In this document: positions 1 to 13,143 of the stretch, piece after piece
How positions within the stretch are numbered: the first letter of the stretch is position 1
Layout of the letters: every line of letters begins with the position of its first letter
DNA from: a virus
Lineage: Duplodnaviria; Heunggongvirae; Uroviricota; Caudoviricetes
IMG/VR virus record: IMGVR_UViG_2917413769_000007
Span: 1 to 13,143 of that record
Strand: one strand, 5' to 3'
DNA length: 13,143 nucleotides
Translations under genes and position numbers: made by a program
Notes under the pieces: model-generated
The model's database searches: none
What the model was told of the DNA's origin: nothing
What the model saw: the letters and a program-made list of their open reading frames with translations, nothing else

Positions 1-126
1 CGCCATAAATACCGGGAAAGGGATACCTGCATCGGTAATGGTTTCCAGCATCATGTCCTGGTTTTCTGGCACAAATACTTTGTTAAAGCCCGAGGCGAAG
101 AAGAACACTCCGAGAGCCAATCGCAT
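1..126 (-). CDS. Membrane protein, DoxX-like (first 42 codons only; gene runs off the window start); probable host flank
   Basis: Manual minus-strand translation from ATG at 126..124 gives MRLALGVFFFASGFNKVFVPENQDMMLETITDAGIPFPVFMA, a hydrophobic N-terminus typical of small inner-membrane proteins. No convincing SD upstream; in-frame stop at 187..189 bounds the ORF. Confidence 0.3.
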   Translation of the reverse strand, partial: MRLALGVFFFASGFNKVFVPENQDMMLETITDAGIPFPVFMA

Positions 127-429
127 TATGGCTAGTGGGATAAAGCTGCGGGTGCCCGGCGTCTGAAAAAAAAGCCTGCAAACAGGTCATAAATATTCTC
201 CCTGATTATGGGGTTGATTGTCACTTACAGGGAGGTATTTTCCTCCCCGGACGCAGGTAAAGATCATATAGCTTCAGATTCGCTGCGTTATTGAACCATA
301 CTGAACGCAGCATACCAGTGCAAGCAAGGTATAGAAAATTTGCTGTGAGCATCTCGAAGTGAAGTTAAGGAGTTGTTTATAGGATAGGCACCTCCGGCAG
401 CCATTATCGAAACATAGACTACCGGAGAG

Positions 430-560
430 AGGAAAATGATAATGTGTATATATTTGCGTATTAAAAATCAAATAAACTCAATATATAGCGATATAACATA
501 TTGATTTAAAGTACTTTGTTGTATTTTGGATAATCTTTATCGTACCGGATATCATATGGC
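430..560. other. AT-rich segment, candidate prophage/host junction
   Basis: About 130 bp of strongly AT-biased sequence (tatatat, ttaaaaatcaaataaa) between the Tfa remnant and the membrane-protein gene; no ORF of coding character. Confidence 0.3.
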
Positions 561-830
561 CTACGCCTCCGACAAATCAGGCCAGCTAACATGTTCAGGG
601 TCGGTTGTAACATCAACCGACTTAACCTTATTCTTATAATTCAGCCAGGCCGACAGTTTTGCTCTGCCGGTGTCGCTGATTTCCCCCAGCATTAACTCTG
701 TGCGCCAGTCGAGCATAGCTGCATCTGCATGGACCAGCAGTTGCTGGCGAACCCGGTTGGCGGCAGCAATCGATGCGGCATTTTTCGCTTCAGTATTCGT
801 GACCCATTTCTCAACCAGTTGTTTATCCAC
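561..830 (-). pseudogene. Tail fiber assembly protein (Tfa) C-terminal domain, probable remnant
   Basis: 89-aa ORF with GTG start; ending LSAWLNYKNKVKSVDVTTDPEHVSWPDLSEA matches from memory the lambda/P2 Tfa C-terminus ([28 protein letters not shown]). Sits right after replication genes with no tail genes in between. Confidence 0.45.
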
Positions 831-1071
831 CAGATCCCCCTTCGTGCTGCTGCCGCCAATAATTCAAACGTTGTCTGAAAAACTCCCGATAACTCTCCGG
901 CGTCGCGTCAATGTGCTGAATAACAGTCTGGCGAGTAACTTTACGCTCATAGAGCTGACGAACGAGCGCAGCGGCGCGCATGTCGTAATGCTCTTTGAGT
1001 TGGCACTCTTGTGGCCATTTTGCACGATTGAGCGGGAGACCGGGCGGGAGGTAATCCGATTGCCCGGCCAT
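823..1071 (-). CDS. Hypothetical protein (82 aa); possibly the upstream part of a frameshifted tfa-like gene
   Basis: ORF with ATG at 1071..1069; contains YLPPGLPLN resembling the YIPPHTGLPAN motif of Tfa N-regions; ends in GGSGG at a C5/G5 homopolymer (836..840) where the next ORF begins in another frame. Confidence 0.35.
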   Translation of the reverse strand: MAGQSDYLPPGLPLNRAKWPQECQLKEHYDMRAAALVRQLYERKVTRQTVIQHIDATPESYREFFRQRLNYWRQQHEGGSGG

Positions 1072-1074
1072 GCC

Positions 1075-1755
1075 TTAAGTCCTCATGTTTTTCTCTGAGT
1101 GAACGTAGAAACGGGGATCAACGCTTTTCAGCGTGAAGTGTGTAACGGGCATGTCGTCATGCCGCTCGATGCCAACAAAGTTAGACATGCAAAGCGCAAA
1201 GACGCGTTTCTGAAGTTGATCCAGGCTTATTTTGATGTCCGGGTAATATTTTTTGATCGCAGACATGATCCCCTGATATGAGAGCGTTTTACCCTTCATA
1301 ATCGCCACAAGGTGTTCCGCCGGCAGTTCGCTGGATTTTTGGGTTAATTGGGATTCAGTGGGATTCTCAATGGGTTTTATGGTATCCAACAGCAGACAAC
1401 AGCGGCTGGTAATACCTACCCTATAGCCCGTTTTTTTGTCGTAATTCTCTTTGCTTCCGGAAGTCCATACAGTTGCTGTTTCGCGAAGTTTTACTGTCTT
1501 CTCTCCACCTGAATAAATAACGGTTCCCGTATGCGTCTTACTGAAACACCGTGGGTTGGTTTCAACAGGTTTTGATTTTTTAGTTTTTTTGGCCGCGCGA
1601 GCAGTTAATCCCGGAACAGGTACTGGGCGCGGGCAAGGCACATAAACTGAACGGCTGCGAGCCCTAGCACCTGCGTTCATCCGCCAGATGATTACGTTTG
1701 TCCAGTCACAGGCATCGTCATCTGTCGCTACTTTAGGATAAATTAAATCGGTCAT
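1075..1755 (-). CDS. Hypothetical protein (226 aa from ATG 1755)
   Basis: Long ORF after the helicase; ATG at 1755..1753 is preceded on the coding strand by GAGGAAAGACCA (complement of 1757..1767). The ORF-track start at 1779 is a GTG without that RBS. No family recognised. Confidence 0.5.
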   Translation of the reverse strand: MTDLIYPKVATDDDACDWTNVIIWRMNAGARARSRSVYVPCPRPVPVPGLTARAAKKTKKSKPVETNPRCFSKTHTGTVIYSGGEKTVKLRETATVWTSGSKENYDKKTGYRVGITSRCCLLLDTIKPIENPTESQLTQKSSELPAEHLVAIMKGKTLSYQGIMSAIKKYYPDIKISLDQLQKRVFALCMSNFVGIERHDDMPVTHFTLKSVDPRFYVHSEKNMRT

Positions 1756-1793
1756 TGGTCTTTCCTCATTGTATTTCACGCTGGTCAGGCGTT

Positions 1794-3182
1794 TTAGAAT
1801 GCGTCGGTGTTGTACTTCTCTGCATACTTCCGTTGCTGTTTTCTGGGTTTTGCTGCCTCCAGTTGAATACGGGTCTTCTCTTTGCCGACGAGCTGATCGA
1901 TTGGCAGAAAGTGACCGTTTTTAAATTCCTGATAAACCACAGTACCAGCAGCCGCAAACCGGCATTTGCCGAGAATGACCTCAGCCACACCAGCCGCCGG
2001 GCTTTCAGGGTTATAAACTTCATCGCGGTACAGAAACAGGATGCTGTCAGCGTCCTGCTCGATGGAACCAGAATCACGCAGGTCTGACATTACCGGGCGA
2101 CGCTGCGCCGCCGGACGCGTATCAACCGCGCGGGAAAGCTGGCTGAGCGCAAAGGTCGGTGTATGTAGCCGCATAGCCATCGTTTTGAGATTGCGGGAAA
2201 TGTGCGCTACGGCAAGGTCGTTACGCTCTGCTTTCGGTTTCTTAATCAGGCCGAGATAGTCGACCATGATCATTGCCAGATGCGGATGGCGTCGCTTGTG
2301 TGTCTCCGCGATAGCGCGGATCTGTTCGACTGTGAGATCGGTCGCATCGACAATCCAGATGTCCCTGTCTGTAAGTTCTCCAATGGCTGCGGTCAATCTC
2401 GCCCAGTCCTCGTCGTACATGTCCTGAGGATTACGCAGGCGAGAAACGGACAAGTTTCCGGCACCAGCTAGCGAACGTTCAACAATCTGAGCCGCCGCCA
2501 TTTCCATGCTGAAAATCAACGCGCCGCCGCCCTTTGCCGTCACACCTTCAACGACGGTAAGCGCAAACTCTGTTTTACCCATGCCTGGGCGACCAGCCAC
2601 GACAATAAGATCCTGCGGGTTAATACTGCCTGTTGCGTTATCAAGATCCGCAATACCAGTCAGCAAATTGCGCGTGGATTCGTCACCGTCCATACGTTTC
2701 TGTACTGTGTCCATGTAAGCGGGCAAAAGCTCGTTGATGTGTACCGGCTGAACGTCGCCACTATCAGCAGTCATGTCCAGCAGCTGCGCCACTGCATTTT
2801 CGACCACTTGATCTCGTTGCTCCTGGTTGGCAGCTTTGCGGATGCCGTCAGCGCCATCCTGCAGAAGTTTCGCCAGCGCGCGGCTGCGCCAGGCCTTAAC
2901 CATCTTCCCGGCATACCCTTTCAGGTTCGGCACCGTTGCGGGGATACGGGATATTTCAGACAGGTCAGCCAGACTTGAACCGCCCAGCGCTTCGCTGATG
3001 AATAACATGTCGATCATGCCGTTAGTCAGCGCCTGTTTTTTTATCTCGCTGAATGTACGGCGATGAAAACCAATGCTGAATGATTCTTCTGGCGTGGAGG
3101 CGATCACGTCAAATGCGTCAGGAGAAGCACCGCCATTCAACAGGCCAGCCAGCACACACGCTTCCAGTTCCTGAGGATTCAT
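1794..3182 (-). CDS. Replicative DNA helicase, DnaB family (phage-encoded)
   Basis: 462-aa ORF; Walker A GRPGMGKT followed by other DnaB-like C-terminal-domain sequence (IVVAGRPGMGKTEFAL, SMEM, MIMVDYLGLI, SQLSR); start ATG overlaps the upstream gene stop as ATGA (3182..3179). Confidence 0.9.
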   Translation of the reverse strand: MNPQELEACVLAGLLNGGASPDAFDVIASTPEESFSIGFHRRTFSEIKKQALTNGMIDMLFISEALGGSSLADLSEISRIPATVPNLKGYAGKMVKAWRSRALAKLLQDGADGIRKAANQEQRDQVVENAVAQLLDMTADSGDVQPVHINELLPAYMDTVQKRMDGDESTRNLLTGIADLDNATGSINPQDLIVVAGRPGMGKTEFALTVVEGVTAKGGGALIFSMEMAAAQIVERSLAGAGNLSVSRLRNPQDMYDEDWARLTAAIGELTDRDIWIVDATDLTVEQIRAIAETHKRRHPHLAMIMVDYLGLIKKPKAERNDLAVAHISRNLKTMAMRLHTPTFALSQLSRAVDTRPAAQRRPVMSDLRDSGSIEQDADSILFLYRDEVYNPESPAAGVAEVILGKCRFAAAGTVVYQEFKNGHFLPIDQLVGKEKTRIQLEAAKPRKQQRKYAEKYNTDAF

Positions 3183-4432
3183 AATGCCTCTTCCCTGGTT
3201 TTACGCAGTGTTTCGGGTTTCATGAGATAATCAAAACTGGCACGCCAGCCGTCGTGATGCTCGCCACCGAAATAAAATTCAGGAGCGGTGTTGCGAAATT
3301 TCTCAAGGTATCCCAGAAACGCGCCTGTAGTTTTATTGATCATGTGGGCTGCGAGGCGTGTAATCATCTGGCGGCGATCGGCGTCCAGGGTTGCAGCAGG
3401 TAGCACATCAGCAAAAATTTCGTTGTAAGCATCGACTACCGCAACCGGATCAATACTGGCTTCGGTGGTGGCCCATGCCTCAGCGTCAGCCAGATAACCA
3501 TCGAAGCGGCATACTCGACAGATATTTGCCGGTTTAGGGAGGCTGTCACCCCGGCGGCGCCAGGTAGCCAGTACCCAACGAATAACTAACTGAACATCAT
3601 CCAGCGTATAGCCGTCTCGGGTAGTCGTAGGGGTCATAAGCGCCAGGAACGGCTTCATGTCACGGCAGCGAGTACCGGTTTGCACATTGTAAAAATCTAG
3701 TGCTTTTTTAGCATCTGCAAGGATTTGTTCGCGGGAAATATTAGCAACCGAGGATGTTTCTGGATGCGCACCAATCACAGTGATCCCGTCAAATTCGTAG
3801 CGTTCTGTAATTACGCCATCTCTGACCAGAATAAAGCCATCACTAAGCTGTTTTAATTTTGTTATGGATTTATCCCGCACGTTGATTCGATCAATTTCAA
3901 TACCGCATTGTTCACCATCGCTTCCAGTTACTAGTAAATCAACGCGGCCTCTGCGACCGTTACCACGATCAGCTACCGGGTATTCGCGCTGGCAGTCAAA
4001 GCCTGCACCAACAATCGCAGACTCAACAGCATCGTGAAGCTCACCTGCTTTTTCAAAATCAAATTTACCTTCGAGAAGGGAAATCAGTTGCTCACGCAAT
4101 ACATGTCCGCCAACTCTCCCAACGGGAGATTTAGAGGGATATATATTCTCTGTAGTAATCTCTGTATGAATATTTGCTGGTTTTCCACTTACTTGTCTGG
4201 TGGTTTTCCGCACTCCAGTATGTGTTTTTTCCGCATTCTTGTTTGCGGCTATAAGTACCTGATATAAAAACGTCATTATCAACCTTGTAGAAAAGTCGAG
4301 CAGGAACACCTTTTCGTTTTTCCAGCAGTACACCAATTGAGCGAAGTTTTTTACGCGCCCCTTCCTGCTCATAGCGAGAAAGGCCTGTTTCTTCTTCCCA
4401 TTCTTCTTGGGTTTTATATACCCACCCGTCAT
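3179..4432 (-). CDS. Replication initiator (O-like), downstream frame: central nuclease-fold-like segment plus conserved phage replication C-terminal domain
   Basis: C-terminal 170 aa (GYTLDDVQLVIRWVLATWRRRGD...EFYFGGEHHDGWRASFDYL) resemble the conserved C-terminal domain of phage replication initiators, by recollection. The first ~50 codons of the tracked ORF are out-of-frame translation of the N-terminal domain; likely continuation of 4131..4556 across a frameshift. Confidence 0.65.
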   Translation of the reverse strand: MTGGYIKPKKNGKKKQAFLAMSRKGRVKNFAQLVYCWKNEKVFLLDFSTRLIMTFLYQVLIAANKNAEKTHTGVRKTTRQVSGKPANIHTEITTENIYPSKSPVGRVGGHVLREQLISLLEGKFDFEKAGELHDAVESAIVGAGFDCQREYPVADRGNGRRGRVDLLVTGSDGEQCGIEIDRINVRDKSITKLKQLSDGFILVRDGVITERYEFDGITVIGAHPETSSVANISREQILADAKKALDFYNVQTGTRCRDMKPFLALMTPTTTRDGYTLDDVQLVIRWVLATWRRRGDSLPKPANICRVCRFDGYLADAEAWATTEASIDPVAVVDAYNEIFADVLPAATLDADRRQMITRLAAHMINKTTGAFLGYLEKFRNTAPEFYFGGEHHDGWRASFDYLMKPETLRKTREEAL

Positions 4433-4556
4433 CGTCGGATCGGTTAGTCCAGTAGGTCATTTGTGAAAGAAAAAGCGAGGCAGTAACACCAATATTCAGG
4501 CGAATAAAACTACGCTGGAAGGCGATCGGCCTGTCGAGTAGTGGGAGTATATTCAT
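4131..4556 (-). CDS. Replication initiator (O-like), N-terminal replisome-organizer/DNA-binding domain (upstream frame)
   Basis: Motif MTYWTNRSDDDGWVYKTQEEWEEETGLSRYEQEGARKKLRSIGVLLEKRKGVPARLFYKVD, typical of phage replisome-organizer N-domains by recollection; ATG at 4556..4554 sits 2 nt after the upstream gene's stop; sequence degrades after FYKVD. Confidence 0.65.
   Translation of the reverse strand: MNILPLLDRPIAFQRSFIRLNIGVTASLFLSQMTYWTNRSDDDGWVYKTQEEWEEETGLSRYEQEGARKKLRSIGVLLEKRKGVPARLFYKVDNDVFISGTYSRKQECGKNTYWSAENHQTSKWKTSKYSYRDYYREYISL
4147..4235. repeat. Candidate replication-origin iterons inside the O-like gene
   Basis: Direct repeats GGTTTTCCACT (4179..4189), GGTTTTCCGCAC (4202..4213), TTTTTCCGCAT (4226..4236) at about 23-bp spacing, plus TCTCTGTA twice (4147..4154, 4159..4166), next to an AT-rich stretch (4255..4280). 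Confidence 0.4.
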
Positions 4557-4558
4557 GA

Positions 4559-4783
4559 TCAAATCCCCAGAGTTTCGGCGATTTGACGACATGCCGCCTG
4601 ATATTCCTCAGATGACAATTCCATTTCACGGAGTTCTTCTTTCAGTTTTTCATACTGCGCCCAGATAGATAGCGCAGCTGCGCGACGGCCTTCGAAAATA
4701 TCTTCGATATCATCCAGGGTGGCTGGCACCCCGTTTAGTCGAAATCCGTTCCGCCATGTAATGCGGTCGATTGAAGTCAGCAT
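4559..4783 (-). CDS. Hypothetical small protein (74 aa) between the YdaT-like and O-like genes
   Basis: ATG at 4783..4781 preceded by GAGGAAAGACCAAT (complement of 4787..4797); product MLTSIDRITWRNGFRLNGVPATLDDIEDIF...; no family recognised. Confidence 0.6.
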   Translation of the reverse strand: MLTSIDRITWRNGFRLNGVPATLDDIEDIFEGRRAAALSIWAQYEKLKEELREMELSSEEYQAACRQIAETLGI

Positions 4784-4805
4784 ATTGGTCTTTCCTCGAT
4801 ACAAG

Positions 4806-5252
4806 TTAAACGCTGGTCAGGCGCTGTGTTTCCTGTATGGCTTGTAATGCCTGCGCTATACGCTGGGGTCGATCCCTTGCTTCAAGCAACAGAGCAATAA
4901 TCGCCGCGGCAAAATCACGAATCGCAATGCAAATTAACTGCTGAGTGGTCATTCCCAGCTGTGCATATCGTTCCGCAGGCAACGCAGCTTCCATCGCCAT
5001 GGCCAGCGCTTTCGTTTTGATTCTTGCCGCTTTCGTCTCACCACGTAGCCAGCGAAAAATCTGCTGCCGGTTGTTGTTGATAGCCCGCCAGTCAGCATTA
5101 CCTTTCGAATCCTCCATCGGGTGAAGTTTTACGTAGCTGGTATTGCCACCCATTCGAAACCACATGCGAGTGATCTCAATAGCAACATGTTCCTGGCCAC
5201 GCTCAGCAGCCCAGTTGAAGATTTCTCTTTTCAGTTCGTCGAGGTTTTCCAC
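4806..5252 (-). CDS. ydaT: YdaT-like protein (Rac-prophage YdaT family)
   Basis: 148-aa ORF with GTG start and AGGAG 10 nt upstream; segment WRAINNNRQQIFRWLRGETKAARIKTKAL matches my recollection of YdaT; located directly downstream of the Cro-like gene as in Rac. Confidence 0.7.
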   Translation of the reverse strand: MENLDELKREIFNWAAERGQEHVAIEITRMWFRMGGNTSYVKLHPMEDSKGNADWRAINNNRQQIFRWLRGETKAARIKTKALAMAMEAALPAERYAQLGMTTQQLICIAIRDFAAAIIALLLEARDRPQRIAQALQAIQETQRLTSV

Positions 5253-5275
5253 TTCGTCGCGTCTCCTGTCGCTGA

Positions 5276-5298
5276 AAACCTGATTAAGCGTAATCAGA
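5276..5298. repeat. 23-bp element AAACCTGATTAAGCGTAATCAGA with internal palindrome, copy 1
   Basis: Identical to 10629..10651. Contains CTGATTA-AGCG-TAATCAG. Lies between the Cro-like and YdaT-like genes; on the transcribed (minus) strand the hairpin is followed by GUUUUC. Confidence 0.5.
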
Positions 5299-5316
5299 TT
5301 TCAAATACGCTCTTTG

Positions 5317-5517
5317 TTAAGCTGCAGTTGTGTTGTTCGGTTCCAGATAAAATTCGGGGTCATATTTCAAAGCCCCATCAGTAACACGATCCAACCTTGC
5401 AGCTCGGCGCTCAGGTATCACATTTCCCCAGCGAGATACTGCTGGAAGTGAAACTCCTGCGGCTCGAGCCAGCTTTGTGGCGCTCCCAAAGAACGCTAAA
5501 GCATCGTTTTTAAACAT
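5317..5517 (-). CDS. dicC: Cro-like HTH regulator, DicC/YdaS family
   Basis: 66 aa, MFKNDALAFFGSATKLARAAGVSLPAVSRWGNVIPERRAARLDRVTDGALKYDP, matches DicC/YdaS pattern from memory; divergent from the repressor gene; SD GGAG 7 nt upstream of ATG. Confidence 0.8.
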   Translation of the reverse strand: MFKNDALAFFGSATKLARAAGVSLPAVSRWGNVIPERRAARLDRVTDGALKYDPEFYLEPNNTTAA

Positions 5518-5598
5518 TGCCGATCTCCATTTTGTTAACTTTAAGAAACAAAATTACGAGTTAAAGAAAATTAAGTCAAGTAAATTTATATTAACTAC
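5518..5598. promoter_or_regulatory. Divergent promoter/operator region of the immunity switch
   Basis: 81-bp AT-rich intergenic region between divergent repressor and cro-like genes; minus-strand -35 TTGACT (complement of 5574..5579); operator-like 18-mer GTTAACTTTAAGAAACAA at 5534..5551 with flanking inverted repeat TTTGTT/AACAAA. Confidence 0.5.
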
Positions 5599-6009
5599 AT
5601 GAACAAAATCAGCCCTGGCGAGCGCATTAAAAAGCGACGTAAAGAACTCAACCTAACTCAGCGTGAAGTCGCAAAACTCGCGCAGGTATCGCACGTCACA
5701 ATCTCTAAATGGGAAAACGATGACAACGAGCCTCAGGGCAGGAACTTGTTCCAGTTGAGTCAGGCCCTGCAATGTTCACCCACCTGGATTTTATACGGGG
5801 ACGAAGACAAACAGCCCGAGCCTCCAGCAGTATCTGAAGAAGATAAGATCACATTAGATGAGCTTGAAGAGCAGCTACTCGAGCTTTTCAGGGCACTACC
5901 CAGTTCAGAAAAAGAACGCCATTTAACTGAGCTTCGCGGAAAAGTGGACGATTTTAATCGTCTGTTTTACGAATTGCTCCAAGCAAGAAAAACCTCCAAG
6001 AAAAAATAA
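5599..6009 (+). CDS. dicA: HTH (XRE-family) repressor, DicA-like
   Basis: 136 aa; HTH segment LTQREVAKLAQVSHVTISKWEN; LQCSPTWILYGDEDKQP and LLELFRALPSSEKE match my recollection of E. coli DicA; no peptidase S24 domain. Confidence 0.9.
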   Translation: MNKISPGERIKKRRKELNLTQREVAKLAQVSHVTISKWENDDNEPQGRNLFQLSQALQCSPTWILYGDEDKQPEPPAVSEEDKITLDELEEQLLELFRALPSSEKERHLTELRGKVDDFNRLFYELLQARKTSKKK

Positions 6010-6045
6010 ATCCATTAAAATCAAATAAATGGATGAGTGTCGCCC

Positions 6046-6110
6046 TTTTATTTAACTTTTATAAACAAATTTATGTTGACTGATAATTTAACCTTTATTA
6101 AATTAACTTC
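6046..6110 (+). promoter_or_regulatory. Candidate early-left promoter with second operator copy
   Basis: TTTAACTTTTATAAACAA (6051..6068) matches the 5534..5551 operator-like 18-mer at 15/18 positions; followed by TTGACT (6076..6081), a 17-nt spacer and TAAATT (6099..6104). Confidence 0.4.
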
Positions 6111-6217
6111 CATCAACGACGCACTAACCACGCGGCAGTTGTTCAGAAAAACGTTCCGCCGCCGGGCGTAAAGCGGATGAGGGAATCGGCGCTAACAACA
6201 AAGCAATGGGGTGAGTG

Positions 6218-6535
6218 ATGGAATTCAGCAAGCTGCCACACGAAGTGCAGGTAATTGCCGCCAAATGCCTGGCAGACGAAATCAATACAGTTTCAGGTTT
6301 TGCAGGCAATGAGGTTAACCGCGGTCCCGCTAAAGAGCAGGCCAAACAGGTTCGTGACGCATTCATTGCTCTTTTTTCAGAGCGCGAGATGGAAGGTGAG
6401 AAAAAAGCGGCAGCAGAGAGAATTGCTGCCACCATCGCAGGCATGCAGCAACTGATTGGTAGCGATGAGGTGCTAAAAACCCAAGTTAAACATCTGATTT
6501 CAGCGACTGAAGATTTGCTTGATAAGTGCCTGTAA
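6218..6535 (+). CDS. Hypothetical protein (105 aa), first gene after the repressor
   Basis: Coding-like composition (MEFSKLPHEVQVIAAKCLADEIN...); GGGGTGAG upstream of ATG; the opposite-strand ORF 6124..6576 is low complexity and judged non-coding. Confidence 0.55.
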   Translation: MEFSKLPHEVQVIAAKCLADEINTVSGFAGNEVNRGPAKEQAKQVRDAFIALFSEREMEGEKKAAAERIAATIAGMQQLIGSDEVLKTQVKHLISATEDLLDKCL

Positions 6536-6736
6536 TTGGTAAGTGACCGATACACCATCTCCGTTAGATGGTCCATCTACATCAGGAAATCGAAGGGTGA
6601 CATTGTTTTTAAGGGCTTTTAGTTGTTCTGAAGTTAACAGTTTAAGGGCTTCATCAAGCATTACGTTTGTTGCTTCCAGAGTGGCTTCTGAGACTTTTGG
6701 CTTAATTTCCTCAAGCATTTTAGAAAGTTGACTCAT
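6500..6736 (-). CDS. Hypothetical protein (78 aa), convergent with 6218..6535
   Basis: Internal ATG at 6736..6734 of the tracked ORF is preceded by AAGG 7 nt upstream; product MSQLSKMLEEIKPKVSEATLEATNVMLDEALKLL...; candidate -10 TATACT (complement of 6769..6774). Confidence 0.4.
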   Translation of the reverse strand: MSQLSKMLEEIKPKVSEATLEATNVMLDEALKLLTSEQLKALKNNVTLRFPDVDGPSNGDGVSVTYQLQALIKQIFSR

Positions 6737-6885
6737 GTTTTTACCTTGCTGGTTATGTGAGAACGCCCAGTATACCACCGAGCCTGAAGTGGCTAAAAGA
6801 CAGGCAACGAATTCGCGGGTCGCCGCCAGTACGATGACATGCGGGAAAGACCGCAATGAATCCAAAATTGCTGTGTGTAGTCTTT

Positions 6886-6912
6886 GCCCAGCCACCACGG
6901 TGGGCACTTTTT
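6886..6912 (+). terminator. Candidate intrinsic terminator (plus strand)
   Basis: GC-rich hairpin GCCCA-N10-TGGGC (or CCAC-CACG-GTGG) followed by ACTTTTTTTC. Confidence 0.45.
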
Positions 6913-7111
6913 TTCACACAGTTACGATTTTACCGTTGTGACTGAGTCTCCAGACGGAGAGGCCAAACCCACAATGTGACACCAGGGAAAGACCGAAGGA
7001 AGTACAACGCCTGACCAGCGTAAACCGAGCATGACCAGCTCTGGCACCGGGGAAGACCGGAAGAGGAAAGACCTGATGGCCTCACCAGCCTGACTGCCGG
7101 GAAAGACCGGC

Positions 7112-7148
7112 ACCCTTTAGATGGCAAAAGGCCCGCACAAGGCGGGCC
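7112..7148 (+). promoter_or_regulatory. nut-like element: boxA-like CCCTTTAG plus boxB-like hairpin
   Basis: CCCTTTA (7113..7119) resembles boxA CGCTCTTTA; 11 nt later a perfect 7-bp GC stem GGCCCGC/GCGGGCC with 5-nt loop ACAAG (7130..7148), not followed by a U tract. Confidence 0.25.
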
Positions 7149-7276
7149 AGTTACCCCGGGCGGCGACCAAACCACCCGGATTGTTCCGCAGGGGACCAAC
7201 CCTGCGGAGAGGAAAGACCAATGCAGGACAGAGCCAACACTGATCGGCTCTGAGTATATATCACTAAGGAGCCGCT

Positions 7277-7600
7277 ATGGAAGCGCTAACCATCCCCGTA
7301 AAGCTGTACATCCATTACAACGCCAACACTTTCTCTCAGGAAAAAATCATTGTCGCCACCTGTGACATGTCACGTAGTTTTCCAGATCAATATGTCTTGC
7401 TGGAAACGCGCAATATATCCATCGATGTAAACCAACCAGAGCCATTCGACATTATTGCTCTGCAGGTCGACCAGTTGCGTGACCAGAAAGAGAAAATCGC
7501 AACTTTGGCGCAAAGTCAGATAGCCCAGGTTGACGACAAAATACAGCAACTGCTCTGTATTGATCACTCACCTGTTCAGGAAAGCGACATCCCATTTTGA
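7277..7600 (+). CDS. Hypothetical protein (107 aa) immediately upstream of the annealing-protein gene
   Basis: Strong SD TAAGGAG 6 nt upstream of ATG; coding-like acidic protein; no family recognised. Confidence 0.65.
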   Translation: MEALTIPVKLYIHYNANTFSQEKIIVATCDMSRSFPDQYVLLETRNISIDVNQPEPFDIIALQVDQLRDQKEKIATLAQSQIAQVDDKIQQLLCIDHSPVQESDIPF

Positions 7601-7695
7601 TCAACCGGCGCCAGACCAGCGCCAGTAACCAAAGAGGAAAGACCAAGTGACAATTTATAACTGTCTGTTCGAGCCGAAGAAATCTGCTATCAAGG

Positions 7696-9918
7696 ATGGT
7701 GCTGTTGCATTGGCAATCAGCATCGAAGCGCCAAATAAAAAAAGTCGCTGAAAGTATCATCATCGGCAAACTCTGGGAGCATTATCCTGCAAATGGCGAC
7801 AACTATTTTAAACCTAAAATCTGGGAAGATTCAGAGGGCCAGCCTCGTCCGGAAGTCGGAAAATTTGATGAGCAATTTGCTCAGGCGAACACATTAGACG
7901 GGGAAAAGTGGATCGCCAACGATTCAGACACCAGTACTTTAAATTTGCCAGCCAACGACGAGATAATCGATCTGACGAAGCTGCCAGCTCGTGAACGCTT
8001 CATTGCCATTCTTATGTTCAGTGATTCCCCCATTGACGGTGTACTGTACTCTCAGGTGCTGGATTATCTTGATAATCTGGAAAATAGCCACGAGCCGTTT
8101 GATGATGACGATCGGCTGAATTCTAATATTCTTCATGCCCTGGAAAATAACGAACCCGTTCGTCACATGCATGTTGAGGGGGTAAACAATCTGATTCAGG
8201 CCATCTTCGCTAAATTTGAAGGCCAGGCACCGGGTAAGGCAGCAATTTCACAGTTCATTAAACGCTGGATGGAAAATCCTCGTAAGCGTGAAGAAATGCG
8301 GCCGGAAAATACCGCATTGAATAATGATGGTGTCAACAATGACAGTAACAAAGTAGCACCACAGCGCGGATATAAGCATTCTTATGCCACACTGGATCAG
8401 GAAATTGCCCTCGCCCTTCTCCCGATTAATTTCACAGAAACAGTATCAGTTCGTGCGCTACGATCTGCTGAACACATCATTGAAGAAGACCGAGAAGATT
8501 TCAAACGCTGGTCAGCGGCACTACGTACGACAGAGCAGATCCTGAAGTATGACCGCCCCAGTGTTTTTGGCGTTATTCAGAATGCACCTGCTAAAGATAC
8601 ATACCATTTCCCTGAGTCACTGCGGCACCATATTGATTCCTGGCTGGCTGAAAATGGTCAGTTCGAGTGTGCTGGTACTGATGCGGAGAGAACCAGCAAA
8701 CTGCTTGCGGCAGAGCGCGGCGAGTACGTCGAAGGTATCAGCGACCCTAACGATCCTAAATGGGTTAAAACAGATTCCCAACCTCAGGTATCAAACCTCG
8801 GCAATGGAATGTTCTCTGTTGATAATCTTCTGCCTGAAACCGCCTCAAAGGAAGGTGAAAAACAGGAAGTGACCGAACAAGGAACTGTTACAGAAGACCA
8901 GGCAACACAGGCCCGAGAAAAGTTGAACAGCATGGGTTACGGCGTTTATGCAACGAACCATGACGAAACTGACCAGCAGGAAGAAAAGCTGAGCGATAAA
9001 GTAAAAACTCTCGTTCAGGATGCGGATCAACTTGTCGAGCGCGTTAAACGTGAAGAGCAGCTCCCGCAGGCATCTGAACTGGTTCAGAGCATCAACGAAA
9101 TGCAGTCTACTGAACGCGATAACCTGGAATTGTGGAAAGAGGTGTTCAAAACAGATGAGCGTTTTACTACTGCGTTCTCTGTGAATGGCGGCGGAACCTC
9201 AATCAATGGCACCTACATGACCATGATCGCTACCCGCGAATTTGGTCCGAAAGGTATCGGCTGGGGTGTGGATATTCTTGAAGAACGCTTTGACGATGGC
9301 GCGCCAATTACTCGCGCAGTCAAAGGGACTGACGGTAACAATACATGGGAGTTTATTCCCGACGGTGTAGGCGGCATCCTGACAGAGAAACACCACGTTA
9401 TCAAAATCAGACTTTGGTACATCCGGAATGGTGCGCGCGGTGAAGAGATTTCATTCGGGTGTACCCCGTATATTTACGGCAGCAAATACGGCCCTATTTG
9501 CGATGGTGAAGCGACAAAAAAATCACTGACTGACGCAACCAAAAAAGCGCTGTCTGCACTTGGTTTCTGCGCTGATATTTTCATGGGCCTGTACGATAAC
9601 CCGGAGTATCGCCAGAAAAATAAAGCAGAATTCGCGCTCAAAAACGCCAGCGAAAACGCCGAGGATGCCGCCCGCGTACGTCAGGAACTGGACGACAAAC
9701 TGACCCGAGTCGCTAACACCATTGCATCTGCTGTATCAGAGCACGAGATCAACAAGGTCTATTCTTCGATTGCTCGCGAAGCGGAGGTGCATCGCAAGGA
9801 TGCAGAGGCGAAAGGTGACACACAGCATGCCCGTTACTTAGGTGGGCGTCTGCGTCGCCTGACAACTATCAAAGATGGACGTATCGCCGAACTGAAAAAA
9901 GTACAGGAGAAAGCATAA
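7696..9918 (+). CDS. Large protein with C-terminal Erf/Rad52-like single-strand annealing domain and ~470-aa unknown N-terminal region
   Basis: 740-codon ORF; residues ~480-640 (EATKKSLTDATKKALSALGFCADIFMGLYD) match the Erf (GATSSYARKYCLNGLFGIDD) and Rad52 helix motifs from memory; tracked ATG 7696 has no usable SD; see frameshift finding. Confidence 0.8.
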   Translation: MVLLHWQSASKRQIKKVAESIIIGKLWEHYPANGDNYFKPKIWEDSEGQPRPEVGKFDEQFAQANTLDGEKWIANDSDTSTLNLPANDEIIDLTKLPARERFIAILMFSDSPIDGVLYSQVLDYLDNLENSHEPFDDDDRLNSNILHALENNEPVRHMHVEGVNNLIQAIFAKFEGQAPGKAAISQFIKRWMENPRKREEMRPENTALNNDGVNNDSNKVAPQRGYKHSYATLDQEIALALLPINFTETVSVRALRSAEHIIEEDREDFKRWSAALRTTEQILKYDRPSVFGVIQNAPAKDTYHFPESLRHHIDSWLAENGQFECAGTDAERTSKLLAAERGEYVEGISDPNDPKWVKTDSQPQVSNLGNGMFSVDNLLPETASKEGEKQEVTEQGTVTEDQATQAREKLNSMGYGVYATNHDETDQQEEKLSDKVKTLVQDADQLVERVKREEQLPQASELVQSINEMQSTERDNLELWKEVFKTDERFTTAFSVNGGGTSINGTYMTMIATREFGPKGIGWGVDILEERFDDGAPITRAVKGTDGNNTWEFIPDGVGGILTEKHHVIKIRLWYIRNGARGEEISFGCTPYIYGSKYGPICDGEATKKSLTDATKKALSALGFCADIFMGLYDNPEYRQKNKAEFALKNASENAEDAARVRQELDDKLTRVANTIASAVSEHEINKVYSSIAREAEVHRKDAEAKGDTQHARYLGGRLRRLTTIKDGRIAELKKVQEKA

Positions 9919-10472
9919 TGACTACTGCAATCGCGTTAGCTGCCGACTATACCAACCTGCTGCAATTGCTGGAAAGCTCAGATGAACTGACTCCGGAAAT
10001 GATCGCCGATACTCTGGAAGGCATTGAAGGAGAACTGGCGGATAAGCTGGATGCCATCATGGTATTAGCCCGCAATAATCTCGGACATGCCAAAACCTGT
10101 GATGAGGAAATGAAGCGCCTGGCGGAGCGCAAAAAGTCTTTCGAAAATAAAGATAAAACGCTCAGGAAATATATTCTGTCGTGCCTTATGGCCGCGAATC
10201 TGGATAAGCTCAAGACACCTAAAAACACTTTCACTGCCCGTAAAGGCAGCATCAGCGTTGTGATCGATAACGAAAAGCTATTGCCTGATGATCTGGTAAC
10301 TGTTCAGACGATTATCGCCCCGGACAAAAAAGCCATCAAAGAGGCAATCGAGGCTGCGGAAGCTGCCGCAGCGCAAATCACCGCTGATGGCGGTGAAGTA
10401 CCTGCCGAACTGTTAAACCCGGTACCGGGCGCCCATCTTGAGATCGGCGAACGTTCATTGCAGGTGCGCTGA
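9918..10472 (+). CDS. Siphovirus Gp157-like protein (companion of Erf/Sak-type recombinases)
   Basis: 184 aa; start ATG overlaps the upstream stop (TAATG); KTPKNTFTARKGSISVVIDNEKLLPDDL matches my recollection of Gp157 proteins; a Mu-Gam-like assignment is not excluded. Confidence 0.6.
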   Translation: MTTAIALAADYTNLLQLLESSDELTPEMIADTLEGIEGELADKLDAIMVLARNNLGHAKTCDEEMKRLAERKKSFENKDKTLRKYILSCLMAANLDKLKTPKNTFTARKGSISVVIDNEKLLPDDLVTVQTIIAPDKKAIKEAIEAAEAAAAQITADGGEVPAELLNPVPGAHLEIGERSLQVR

Positions 10473-10473
10473 T

Positions 10474-10656
10474 ATGCTGAAACTATCTCTCAAACGTGGC
10501 GATGCGGTACATGTTGTTCTCCCTGACGGTAGTAACGGAATTATTGAAGCCCGCAGCCGTTGTGAACTGGGTATGCGTCTGCCGAAAAACGTGAAGGTTA
10601 CGCGTGAGAAAGGCGCATTCCTCCCTGCAAACCTGATTAAGCGTAATCAGAAATAA
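10474..10656 (+). CDS. Hypothetical small protein (60 aa)
   Basis: ATG at 10474, 2 nt after the upstream stop; product MLKLSLKRGDAVHVVLPDGSNGIIEARSRCELGMRLPKNVKVTREKGAFLPANLIKRNQK; 3' end is encoded by repeat copy 2. Confidence 0.45.
   Translation: MLKLSLKRGDAVHVVLPDGSNGIIEARSRCELGMRLPKNVKVTREKGAFLPANLIKRNQK
10629..10651. repeat. 23-bp element AAACCTGATTAAGCGTAATCAGA, copy 2
   Basis: Identical to 5276..5298, same orientation on the plus strand; overlaps the stop region of 10474..10656. Confidence 0.5.
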
Positions 10657-10705
10657 AACCCCGCTACCGCTAGCATTGCGGCCTCACTATTCACAGGAGG
10701 TCGCA

Positions 10706-10903
10706 ATGCTGCGATGGCAACCCGGAGCTACTCTGCTCACAGATTTCGATATAAAGATTGGCCGGTTATCGGCAAGCGTACGAAAGAAGACACTGACCCA
10801 GTCCGACATCGAACGCGCCTGCAGTGATGCTGACGACGCTGTGTACCGGATGATGAGGAAAGACCAACATGACCAGAGAAAACGATCTGCTAACAGACGC
10901 TGA
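10706..10903 (+). CDS. Hypothetical small protein (65 aa)
   Basis: Internal ATG at 10706 preceded by AGGAGG with 5-nt spacing; product MLRWQPGATLLTDFDIKIGRLSASVRKKTLTQSDIERACSD...; 3' end overlaps the xis-like start by 35 nt. Confidence 0.5.
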   Translation: MLRWQPGATLLTDFDIKIGRLSASVRKKTLTQSDIERACSDADDAVYRMMRKDQHDQRKRSANRR

Positions 10904-11093
10904 ACTGATTGAGTTTACCGGCTATCAGAAACCATCCAAACAACGGGAAATACTGGACCGTGGCGGCGTGTCGTACATTCCCGACCGGGAAGGACGCCCG
11001 ATGGTTACCTGGACACATATCAACGCTGTACTGAACGGACAGATCACCGTGCAGACCAGTACAGAAGAGAAACCCGATTTTGGAGCTATTTAA
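10869..11093 (+). CDS. Excisionase-like protein (DUF4224-type)
   Basis: 74 aa directly upstream of and abutting the integrase gene; LLTDAELIEFTGYQKPSKQREILDRGGVSYIPDREGRPMV fits the int-adjacent small-protein pattern from memory; preceded by GAGGAAAGACCAAC. Confidence 0.65.
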   Translation: MTRENDLLTDAELIEFTGYQKPSKQREILDRGGVSYIPDREGRPMVTWTHINAVLNGQITVQTSTEEKPDFGAI

Positions 11094-12113
11094 ATGGGGC
11101 GCAGAAGAAAGGATCCGGGTGATAACAGGTTACCCCCGCGCGTATCAAAAACCAGAACTCGTTACTACTACAAACCCACCTCGCGGGAGACCGTGACGCT
11201 TGGACCAATCACCTTCACTATGTCGGCGTTATGGAAACGGTACGAAGAAGAGCGACGCAATTATTCAGATGTGATGACGTTCGAAAAGCTCTGGAAGATG
11301 TTTCTTAAAAGCGCCTACTACACCGAGCTTGCAATACGAACCCAGCGGGATTACCTGCAACATCAGAAAAAACTACTTGTCGTATTCGGTAAAGTTAAAG
11401 CTGATTTAATCAAACCGGAAGACGTTCGTCAGTTTATGGATCGTCGTGGCCTACAAAGTAAAAATCAGGCTAACCAGGAAATGAGCAGTATGTCGCGTGT
11501 TTACCGCTGGGGATACGAACGCGGTTACGTTAAGGGAAACCCGTGCGCCGGCGTCAGTAAATTCTCTCTCAAGGCCCGCGAGCAATACATCACTGACGAA
11601 GACTACCTGGCGATTTATAAACATGCAGATCACGTCGTCAGGGCAGCAATGGAAATATCGTACCTGTGCGCAGCCCGGCAAGCTGATGTACTCGCTCTGC
11701 GCTGGATGCAGATATCTGACAAGGGGATTTTTATCCAGCAGGGTAAGACAGGGAAAAAGCAAATTAAGGTGTGGACGCCCCGCCTTCGGCAGGCGCTGGA
11801 AACGGCACAGACAGAATGCCCGAGGCTCTCACCTGATTCACTGGTTATCTATAACAACGATCGTGCTCAGTTCATCCGCAAGACGTTCAATAATCGCTGG
11901 CTAAAGGCCGTACGTGCCGCACAAAGCGAACTGGGCCGGCAACTGGATTACACGTTTCACGATATAAAGGCAAAAGCCATTTCAGATTTTGAGGGGAGTA
12001 GCAGGGATAAGCAGATATTTAGCGGTCACAAAACAGAAAGTCAGGTGCTTATCTACGACAGAAAGGTGCAAATCAGTCCGACGCTGGATCGTCCTTTGAT
12101 AAATGGCCAGTAG
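11094..12113 (+). CDS. int: Tyrosine recombinase / phage integrase
   Basis: 339 aa; alignable by eye to lambda Int catalytic region: AARQADVLALRW (Arg-I), QQGKTGKK (Lys), TFHDIKAKAISDF (His box), FSGHKTESQVLIYDRK (His-II and Tyr). Confidence 0.9.
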   Translation: MGRRRKDPGDNRLPPRVSKTRTRYYYKPTSRETVTLGPITFTMSALWKRYEEERRNYSDVMTFEKLWKMFLKSAYYTELAIRTQRDYLQHQKKLLVVFGKVKADLIKPEDVRQFMDRRGLQSKNQANQEMSSMSRVYRWGYERGYVKGNPCAGVSKFSLKAREQYITDEDYLAIYKHADHVVRAAMEISYLCAARQADVLALRWMQISDKGIFIQQGKTGKKQIKVWTPRLRQALETAQTECPRLSPDSLVIYNNDRAQFIRKTFNNRWLKAVRAAQSELGRQLDYTFHDIKAKAISDFEGSSRDKQIFSGHKTESQVLIYDRKVQISPTLDRPLINGQ

Positions 12114-12114
12114 T

Positions 12115-12144
12115 TTGACAAATCCGCATCAACGGGGCTATATT
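12115..12144 (+). promoter_or_regulatory. Candidate sigma70 promoter immediately after int, reading toward antA
   Basis: TTGACA (12115..12120), 18-nt spacer, TATATT (12139..12144). Confidence 0.5.
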
Positions 12145-12174
12145 CCGCTTCATGGTGCTGAACACACCTTGCAA

Positions 12175-12212
12175 AGCGGAAACCGCACCTGTCAGTCATG
12201 CGGATTTTTTAT
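12175..12212 (+). terminator. Candidate attenuator/terminator in the antA leader
   Basis: GCGG-AAA-CCGC hairpin (12175..12185) shares its CCGC with an alternative CCGCA-N11-TGCGG stem (12182..12202) followed by ATTTTTTAT; stems are short. Confidence 0.3.
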
Positions 12213-12357
12213 GTCCATTTTTCAGATATGGTCGGGTAGCGCGTATACCGAAAAACAGCCGAAAGGTTAAGGATACGGGCCGACTTTGCACGGTGTTCAA
12301 GTACCTGACCGCCCTGCTGAACACAGGGCTATCTGAACAAATGCAAAGGACATAAAA

Positions 12358-13143
12358 ATGACCAATCAACTCATCCCCGTTTTCAACGGCACGATATCCA
12401 ACGACCCCCACCTGCTCTGCAATGCCCGCGATCTGCACGCCTTCCTCGAAGTAGGCAAGCGCTTCGCTACTTGGATTACTGACCGACTAAACGAGTATCA
12501 ATTCGTTGAAAATCAGGACTACATAGCTATTTCCCAAAAACGGGAAATAGGTCATGGGCGTGGCCGCAAGGACTTCTACATCACCCTGGACACCGCCAAG
12601 GAACTGGCGATGGTTGAGCGCAACGAAAAAGGCCGCCAGATCCGCCGATACTTCATTGAGTGCGAGAAGCAACTCAGTCAGAACAAAGAATCAATTGTCC
12701 TGACCACTCCGATGCATCGAACGCCACTACGTGACGCCGTTCACCTTCTTGTCGGTATGCGCTGCATGGCATTTCAGGAAGCCTATCAGCTTATCCACCA
12801 GCGCTTTGGCGTCGGTAGTATTGAACAACTCACCCGCGCACAAGTGATGGATGCCATAGAGTACATTCATTGTCTGTTAGCAGACGGGGCAACAGGGAAA
12901 CTCCCCTCCGGCGAAAGCAGAATATTAATCACCCTTCGAAATGGAGAAATAATCAAGACAAGGGCCATTGGAGCTGATGAGCATGTCGCAACGCTGGAGG
13001 CTTTTATCGAACTGGCGAGAAGTGCGCATTACATTGTCATCCACAAGGATGGTGCAGCGCCATTGATGAAGGCATTAACAGGAGGGAGATCTGAGGAAGG
13101 CAAAAGACACAAACTGAATAATTATTCAGTTTGCGATTTCTGA
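12358..13143 (+). CDS. antA: Phage antirepressor, AntA-type N-terminal domain with C-terminal extension
   Basis: 261 aa; ARDLHAFLEVGKRFATWITDRLNEYQFVENQDYIAI and DFYITLDTAKELAMVERNEKGRQIRRYFIECEKQL match the AntA domain from memory; SD AAGGA 9 nt upstream; stop at the last three bases of the window. Confidence 0.8.
   Translation: MTNQLIPVFNGTISNDPHLLCNARDLHAFLEVGKRFATWITDRLNEYQFVENQDYIAISQKREIGHGRGRKDFYITLDTAKELAMVERNEKGRQIRRYFIECEKQLSQNKESIVLTTPMHRTPLRDAVHLLVGMRCMAFQEAYQLIHQRFGVGSIEQLTRAQVMDAIEYIHCLLADGATGKLPSGESRILITLRNGEIIKTRAIGADEHVATLEAFIELARSAHYIVIHKDGAAPLMKALTGGRSEEGKRHKLNNYSVCDF

Follow-up and report, generated by a model that had tools for sequence, protein, structure and literature searches.

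The stretch of DNA examined here, referred to as the window, comprises 13,143 nt (positions 1-13,143 of the IMG/VR record IMGVR_UViG_2917413769_000007, Caudoviricetes) and covers the early region of a lambdoid prophage, laid out as a mirror image of the usual lambda map (Table 1). The minus strand encodes a cro-like gene, a YdaT-family gene and then replication genes, while the plus strand carries a cI-like repressor gene followed by a long pL-type operon whose last genes are a Gp157-like gene, orf60, orf65, a DUF4224 gene and an integrase gene. Within this region a 23-bp sequence, AAACCTGATTAAGCGTAATCAGA, occurs exactly twice, both times on the plus strand, and an exact search confirmed the identity and common orientation of the two copies that a preliminary description of this DNA had reported. 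No third copy was found in the window even when up to three mismatches were allowed, and none of 200 dinucleotide shuffles of the window contained any match (0/200). The subject of this study is what these two copies do.

The core of the 23-mer, CTGATTA-AGCG-TAATCAG, is the perfect 7+7 inverted repeat that had been described, and can also be read as CTGATT-N6-AATCAG; this 18-mer, CTGATTAAGCGTAATCAG, occupies 5280-5297 in copy 1 and 10633-10650 in copy 2. The flanks had been said to diverge immediately, and a mismatch does follow at once, but on the left three more identical bases (CTG), absent from relatives, lie beyond that single mismatch. Copy 1 falls in the intergenic DNA that separates ydaT from the cro-like gene: the cro stop codon is 19 nt away, and the copy precedes the ydaT start by 27 nt. 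Copy 2 lies in frame within orf60, of which it forms the last six sense codons before a terminal Lys-stop, with orf65, an excisionase (xis) candidate and the integrase gene downstream. Both placements agree with the preliminary description, which had put the copies between Cro-like and YdaT-like genes and at the 3′ end of a small open reading frame (ORF) ahead of the next gene. A plus-strand ORF of 87 aa at 5121-5384 spans copy 1 in the frame that orf60 uses at copy 2 (NLIKRNQ in both); as a gene it is probably spurious, and it overlaps ydaT and cro on the opposite strand.

Table 1. Features of the window that bear on the two copies of the 23-mer, in order of position.
Feature	Position	Strand	Description
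ydaT / cII-like activator gene, 148 aa	4806..5252	-	Pfam YdaT_toxin (PF06254), E=1.6e-18; PHROG 163 'CII-like transcriptional activator', E=3e-35
Copy 1 of the 23-mer	5276..5298	+	Exact match; predicted YdaT box of a pRE-like promoter
cro-like gene	5317..5517	-	Pfam P22_Cro, E=8e-19
TAAGCT, -10-like hexamer	5318..5323	+	20 nt after box 1; TGT in front (extended -10); overlap with the stop codon of cro, which is on the opposite strand
cI-like repressor gene	5599..6009	+	Pfam HTH_3 and Phage_CI_repr; downstream of the predicted box-1 promoter, same strand
orf60, 60 aa	10474..10656	+	phrog_2482 (no function given); hypothetical protein in RefSeq relatives
Copy 2 of the 23-mer	10629..10651	+	Exact match; predicted YdaT box of a pI-like promoter
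Stable RNA hairpin	10668..10712	+	TAGCAT region paired with the Shine-Dalgarno sequence and AUG of orf65
TAGCAT, -10-like hexamer	10671..10676	+	20 nt after box 2
orf65, first gene after box 2	10706..10903	+	phrog_27062 (no function given); 35-nt overlap with the xis start
Excisionase candidate (DUF4224)	10869..11093	+	Pfam DUF4224, E=9e-13; PHROG 1266 'excisionase', E=1e-23
Tyrosine integrase	11094..12113	+	Pfam Phage_integrase

YdaT was long annotated as a toxin, and its role as the CII equivalent of the prophages CP-933P and Rac has been shown only recently. The boxes footprinted in the published work share the consensus (T/A)TGATT-N6-AATCAA. CP-933P YdaT has been crystallised and gives a DNase footprint on TTGATT-N6-AATCAA at the junction of ydaS (cro) and ydaT; the protein is a tetramer and binds two operator duplexes at once (Prolic-Kalinsek et al. 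2023, PMC9986795). It also activates a pRE-like promoter (Jurenas et al. 2021, PMC8630535). Rac YdaT protects ATGATTCATGAAAATCAA (ATGATT-N6-AATCAA), a box that overlaps the ydaT start codon; a reverse promoter aimed at the repressor gene is activated 29-fold, and this activation is lost when the box is mutated (Wons et al. 2025, PMC11879457). DNA binding by Rac YdaT is abolished when R57 is mutated together with H56, and the Rac and CP-933P proteins bind each other's boxes despite an identity of 30% (PMC11879457). The effect reported for the ydaT-proximal box is activation, not repression, and the pR-equivalent promoter is unaffected (PMC11879457, PMC8630535). Overall, the published targets of YdaT comprise a repressor-directed promoter, immunity-region operators and one host gene.

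The core of the window repeat carries 10/10 defined bases of TGATT-N6-AATCA. Both copies have the inverted repeat NTGATT-N6-AATCAN, and a cognate YdaT-family gene is present in the same element. The protein encoded by that gene matches the CP-933P YdaT structures (PDB 3c4r and 8bt1) with an E value of about 1e-5, and in its recognition helix, NNNRQQIFRW, residue R67 aligns to Rac R57, such that the gene adjacent to copy 1 specifies the same recognition-helix arginine as the published protein. Copy 1 lies, like the published boxes, between the cro-like gene and ydaT and near the ydaT start, whereas copy 2 does not and forms a separate second target. Copy 1 thereby shows every feature of a published YdaT box that can be read from DNA, and its binding by YdaT and the ensuing activation are predictions on that footing. 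Several differences from the published boxes are also evident. The outermost base is C/G (CTGATT...AATCAG), each arm reaches 7 bp around a conserved central GC, and the box does not overlap the start codon but precedes it by 27 nt; in addition, a second, equally conserved copy is found upstream of the xis-int cassette. No description of an int-proximal YdaT site was found in the YdaT papers on CP-933P and Rac that were searched (PMC9986795, PMC11879457, PMC8630535).

Conservation of the repeat was followed in 80 IMG/VR viral contigs whose YdaT is 79-99% identical to that of the window and in three genomic loci (1.30 Mb together), with per-locus alignments of 55 distinct relatives at locus 1 and 50 at locus 2. 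The pattern NTGATT-N6-AATCAN has a chance expectation of 0.02 per 13 kb. It matched 157 times in the 1.30 Mb, every time at one of the same two places, either 38-52 nt before ydaT or 4.5-5.6 kb away at the end of orf60. The search of related phages that the preliminary description had proposed thus returned two boxes per genome, in the same two places, in about 80 related prophages. Related loci that do not extend to int have the first box only, and box 2 is present in every locus that reaches the int end. The complete phage genome BUCT708 (43,947 bp) has exactly two boxes; no third, paQ-like box was found in it, the single complete genome of the family that was scanned.

The conserved unit in these relatives is [C/T]TGATTA-nGCn-TAATCAG. 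The half-sites are invariant apart from the outermost C or T, and the variable positions within the 18-mer are 8 and 11. The centre occurs in both orientations (AGCG and CGCT, AGCC and GGCT), and because it flips while the half-sites stay fixed, the pattern is what a symmetric dimer would be expected to leave. Per position, conservation runs at 0.94-0.98 inside the box and at 0.55-0.62 in its flanks. At locus 2, none of the six synonymous third positions varies, yet substitutions at second positions do occur and change the encoded residue (R to H or P; K to T or R), which indicates that constraint acts on the DNA and not on the orf60 protein, and excludes protein-coding constraint as the cause of the repeat. 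The earlier suggestion of a shared protein-binding site is thus strongly supported, as the core equals a footprinted YdaT box and is conserved in the manner of a symmetric-dimer operator. Co-variation between the box and YdaT is uninformative within the family, since the half-sites are invariant and only the outermost base (C or T) varies.

The genes on either side of the boxes are far more variable than the boxes themselves. The integrases beside box 2 range from 43 to 98% identity (33% to 98% when integrase and excisionase alleles are taken together), and locus 1 is adjoined by at least eight different cro alleles and by varying cI alleles. A CI/Cro operator or an Int/Xis site was rejected on account of these alleles, which change next to an unchanged box. 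Binding of some other protein could be proposed instead, be it encoded by orf60 or orf65, supplied by the host, or Int/Xis with the box as an accessory site, on the grounds that every relative has orf60 and orf65 together with box 2 and that binding by the YdaT of the window phage is itself only predicted. The varying int, xis, cI and cro alleles weigh against this proposal too, as do the match to the YdaT box at all ten defined positions and a perfect box that precedes xisR in Rac, an element with no annotated orf60- or orf65-like genes (see below). Given the match to the footprinted consensus and the pattern of conservation, a different binding protein is unlikely.

The same evidence bears on whether the repeat has any function at all. 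It might be a relic of a recent duplication or gene conversion, or a recombination linker at the boundaries of mosaic modules, as perfect identity of the two copies over 23 bp, centre and flanks included, is confined to one sublineage (16/75 related prophages carrying both boxes) and locus 1 lies at a mosaic junction. The at least eight cro alleles all end in GCT-TAA (Ala-stop; window 5317-5323) at an equal distance from the box, so that the boundary where the ydaT module meets the immunity module falls within the final codons of cro. Citrobacter murliniae carries exact copies at both loci, with a pL arm of only 84% identity and another allele of the cro/cI module. A relic would be expected to degrade as fast as the DNA around it. 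The half-sites are instead invariant amid flanks that are 55-62% conserved per position, synonymous sites are frozen, and the two-site layout is kept in the phage ZF40. A functionless repeat is therefore extremely unlikely.

A frequent repeat of the host genome, raised at the outset as the finding that would speak against a phage element, is not what the data show. The exact 23-mer is present in only 3 of 185,579 genomes (one genome per species), which argues against a REP/ERIC-like host repeat, and two of the three occurrences are prophages of this family. The third is in Xenorhabdus sp. PB62.4 (6368-6390 of the examined stretch), in a non-phage context directly after an N-terminal fragment of an IS630-like transposase. 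Within 8 kb around this copy no homologues of YdaT, orf60 or int were found, and there is no TAnnnT hexamer at the distance described below (20/21 nt). Its chance expectation is about 0.02.

The preliminary description had also considered that the palindrome works as RNA, pointing to the GUUUUC that follows the hairpin on the minus strand at locus 1, which was confirmed, and to the site of lambda tR1 and nutR. In lambda, nutR/tR1 lies between cro and the next gene of the pR operon, a position shared by copy 1, and the resemblance extends to a small hairpin with a few U residues behind it on the strand transcribed from pR. A weak terminator or pause site (tR1-like), a nut/boxB-like site and an RNase processing hairpin can all be envisaged for a hairpin of 7 bp. 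However, the stem is AU-rich with two G-C pairs (-6.1 kcal/mol), and a terminator scan was empty at both loci. Neither tail, GUUUUC at locus 1 or AAAUAAAA at locus 2, agrees with a GC-rich stem followed by at least five U in eight. At locus 2 AAAUAAAA follows the stem on the transcribed strand and there is no U-tract, while at locus 1 the U-run shrinks to three in relatives (GUUUGC; AAUUUGCG in ZF40).

Further evidence against an RNA role comes from the arrangement of the copies. As direct DNA repeats in the divergent pR and pL operons they would give complementary RNAs, with loops CGCU and AGCG, whereas a nut site needs identical RNA. Copy 2 moreover has the wrong orientation for such a site and occupies the wrong end of the pL operon, lying 4.6 kb from the repressor gene at the distal end and not promoter-proximally. 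Compared with lambda nut, there is no boxA on the transcribed strand, and the 7-bp stem with a 4-nt loop differs from the 5-bp stem and 5-nt loop of boxB. A boxA-like CGCTCTTT at 5308-5315 (+), within the spacer between box 1 and TAAGCT, was taken as chance, as it is on the non-pR strand and unconserved. Among about 100 distinct sequences, none has compensatory changes in the arms, and no Rfam match was found at either locus. Neither the weak terminator nor the processing site thus finds support, and an RNA function of any of these kinds is very unlikely. The tR1/nutR analogy fares no better, the lambda landmark that corresponds to the position of copy 1 being pRE.

A feature that the two loci share beyond the 23-mer is a TAnnnT hexamer exactly 20 nt to the right of each 18-mer. 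At locus 1 the hexamer is TAAGCT in 52 of the 55 distinct relatives and TAnnnT in all 55, preceded by TGn, and the major allele has a frequency of 0.99, compared with 0.55-0.76 at neighbouring positions. At locus 2 it is TAGCAT in 49/50 distinct relatives and TACATT in the remaining one. The sequence of the 20-nt spacer varies at both loci while its length is fixed. If the hexamer is a -10 element, the centre of the box falls near -41.5 and the promoter-proximal half-site takes the place of a -35 element (CAGATT or CAGAAA). Both hexamers are on the plus strand, so that box 1 points antisense through cro to cI and box 2 points to orf65-xis-int, and this pairing of predicted activator sites at cro/cII and upstream of int, facing one genomic direction, is found in all relatives that reach int.

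The spacing also holds in lineages that cannot be aligned with the window at the DNA level (Rac, CP-933P, Kp4882-1, ZF40, mEp237 and HK639). Pointing toward ydaS, the Rac ydaT box is followed after 20 nt by TATGAT (3′ end of ydaS/start of ydaT; 10152-10195 of the Rac stretch), the ydaT box of the Klebsiella phage Kp4882-1 after 21 nt by TATCAT, and the CP-933P OM site after 21 nt by TACAAT, the last hexamer being taken only from the published operator oligonucleotides (the authors' OMR oligonucleotide). Toward cro, TACGCT stands 20 nt from the cro/cII box of ZF40, and the imperfect boxes of mEp237 and HK639 have TATTTT and TACCTT, respectively, again at 20 nt. A second ZF40 box, at gp05, has TACCGT at 20 nt in the direction of xis-int. 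The base rate of TAnnnT at an offset of 20 or 21 is about 2%.

Boxes near the integration genes are not confined to close relatives. In ZF40, whose YdaT match is 56% identical and limited to the N-terminal half, the second box is perfect and lies upstream of the xis-int cassette. In Rac (E. coli K-12, NC_000913.3), a perfect box, TTGATTATTAATAATCAG, is present at 1413503-1413520, between rcbA and xisR. In the direction of xisR-intR, TAACAT follows 21 nt from this box and stands 23 nt ahead of the xisR ATG; no orf60- or orf65-like genes appear in the annotation of Rac, although the box precedes xisR. No mention of the rcbA-xisR box was found in the Rac YdaT papers that were searched. Under the spacing rule, Rac YdaT is predicted to control xisR-intR and/or the small RNA (sRNA) that acts as the RalA antitoxin. 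On the strand of that sRNA, TACAAT is found 20 nt from the same box, and the annotated start follows 10 nt after the hexamer. The int-proximal site is not universal in the YdaT family, because mEp237 and HK639 have imperfect boxes near cII only and none near int, and the second box of Kp4882-1 is elsewhere.

Lambda offers a direct point of comparison. Lambda CII is made from the pR operon and binds direct repeats, TTGC-N6-TTGC, that straddle the -35 region. Its promoter pRE lies between cro and cII and reads antisense through cro into cI, and pI lies in the pL arm and reads toward int, starting inside xis and so giving Int without Xis. Taken together, the likeness to footprinted boxes, the conservation and the hexamer spacing make it probable that the two palindromes are operators for the prophage's own YdaT, one serving a repressor-directed (pRE-like) and the other an int-directed (pI-like) promoter. 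A YdaT dimer, half of the tetramer, would bind each [C/T]TGATTA-nGCn-TAATCAG near -41.5, and, in promoters with no usable -35 element, its proximal half-site would cover the -35 region as at class II activator-dependent promoters. From box 1 and TAAGCT, a plus-strand transcript would start near 5330 and run antisense through cro into the cI-like repressor gene, in analogy to pRE; from box 2 and TAGCAT, another would start near 10683 and run into orf65, xis (DUF4224) and int, in analogy to pI. YdaT produced from the pR operon after infection would then switch on repressor synthesis and the integration cassette together.

The predicted circuit would work like lambda CII with pRE and pI, yet it stands outside the lambda CII site family. 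As with the CII promoters (pRE, pI and paQ), one activator from the pR operon would serve two targets that point the same way on the genome, at weak -35 regions overlapped by the activator site. Unlike the direct repeats bound by CII, the site here is an 18-bp palindrome near -41.5, and the predicted int-directed start precedes orf65 and xis rather than lying inside xis. In geometry the arrangement is closer to the class II promoters of CRP and FNR, where a palindromic dimer site centred 41.5 bp upstream of the start replaces the -35 element and the -10 is recognisable (here extended by TGn at locus 1). However, YdaT belongs to an unrelated protein family (a POU-like helix-turn-helix tetramer), and the geometry proposed for it is deduced from sequence.

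Several observations weigh against this interpretation. A simple sigma-70 scan called no promoter at either locus; this null result is expected because the promoters would be activator-dependent, but the scan gives no positive support either. The TAAGCT of locus 1 overlaps the end of cro (final codon plus stop), and the TAGCAT of locus 2 doubles as the base of a conserved RNA hairpin, so that its conservation stems partly from another cause. The predicted pI-like transcript includes xis, unlike that of lambda pI, which makes the logic of Int without Xis uncertain. In the published systems the activated promoter is placed elsewhere, the sequences here suggesting a start beside the box. For Rac, activation by YdaT is assigned to the promoter PracR4, about 190 bp from the box (PMC11879457), and for CP-933P the predicted promoter is placed upstream of the box (PMC9986795). 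The Rac reporters contained both the box-proximal region and PracR4 (PMC11879457), and the YdaT-dependent start in Rac and CP-933P may lie next to the box, not at PracR4.

Not every box appears to be a promoter element, as perfect boxes in Rac ydaW (12619-12636 of the Rac stretch) and in Kp4882-1 (27255-27272) have no hexamer at 20/21 nt. These two lie downstream in the pR operon, and may serve as a looping partner or a paQ-like site. They lend some weight to a reading in which YdaT binds both boxes of the window but copy 2, or both copies, act architecturally or negatively and not as class II promoter elements. In one form of this reading, the tetramer bridges the boxes in a loop of about 5.3 kb that encloses the immunity region and the pL arm, and exactly two boxes per genome match the valence of the CP-933P tetramer, which binds two duplexes (PMC9986795). 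In another, bound YdaT would be a roadblock that stops read-through from pL into xis-int and from pR into ydaT, in line with the location of box 1 within the ydaT 5′ leader. Both forms leave TAnnnT at exactly 20-21 nt in independent lineages unexplained, and against both stand the published activation from the ydaT-proximal box and the unaffected pR-equivalent promoter. An architectural or roadblock role of bound YdaT is possible, though of rather low probability as a replacement for promoter activation.

The hairpin at locus 2 may add a further layer to the predicted YdaT-dependent promoter. It extends from the TAGCAT hexamer to just past the orf65 AUG (-31.4 kcal/mol, z=-6.3), and compensatory changes are found in its upper stem among 40 distinct relatives: CG/UA (18 vs 19 sequences), GC/GU/AU and CG/UG/UA. 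TAGCAT pairs with AUGCU, the orf65 start codon and part of codon 2, and the RNA structure therefore partly explains the conservation of the hexamer. In three relatives with codon 2 CAA or CAG, however, the hexamer keeps T1 and A2 though A2 is unpairable, and this hairpin has no bearing on the equal hexamer spacing seen at locus 1 and in other lineages. Folding predicts that in a read-through RNA the Shine-Dalgarno (SD) sequence and the AUG of orf65 are paired (probability unpaired 0.04 and 0.00, respectively). In an RNA begun 5-9 nt after the hexamer, the outer 5′ arm is absent, the AUG is free (0.96-1.00) and the SD is partly paired (0.06-0.67 unpaired).

An int-proximal YdaT promoter whose -10 element lies in the 5′ arm of the hairpin could thus subject the integration cassette to control by promoter of origin, a tentative proposal that we hold with some reserve. 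The folding suggests, speculatively, that orf65 translation depends on the promoter from which the RNA comes: pL read-through RNA would be translationally silent at orf65, perhaps with an altered balance of xis and int, and transcripts of the YdaT promoter would start inside the stem and be translatable. The logic is the same as in the fold-back inhibition of IS10 and IS50. If true, the arrangement would replace the lambda solution of a pI inside xis combined with sib retroregulation.

Some further features of the window lie apart from the boxes. On the minus strand at 3179-4592, ORFs of 153 aa (4131-4592) and 417 aa (3179-4432) overlap by about 300 nt in different frames, where relatives have a single helix-turn-helix/RepO-like replication gene of about 330 aa; the overlap could be due to a frameshift or an insertion. 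An Rfam match to sRNA-Xcc1 (RF02221) at 12230-12318 (+) scores 68 bits (gathering threshold 53) and sits between the integrase gene and an Ant-like anti-repressor gene that runs from 12358 to the window end. The window contains no tRNA gene, and related prophages carry one directly after int.

Use of the ydaT-proximal box was already known in the YdaT family, whereas the int-proximal copy, the spacing rule and the arrangement with the hairpin appear to be new. If the int-proximal box is real, the analogy with CII would be complete, one activator serving both the repressor and the integration functions. More generally, a box followed by TAnnnT at 20-21 nt would provide a rule for predicting YdaT-dependent promoters in many enterobacterial prophages.

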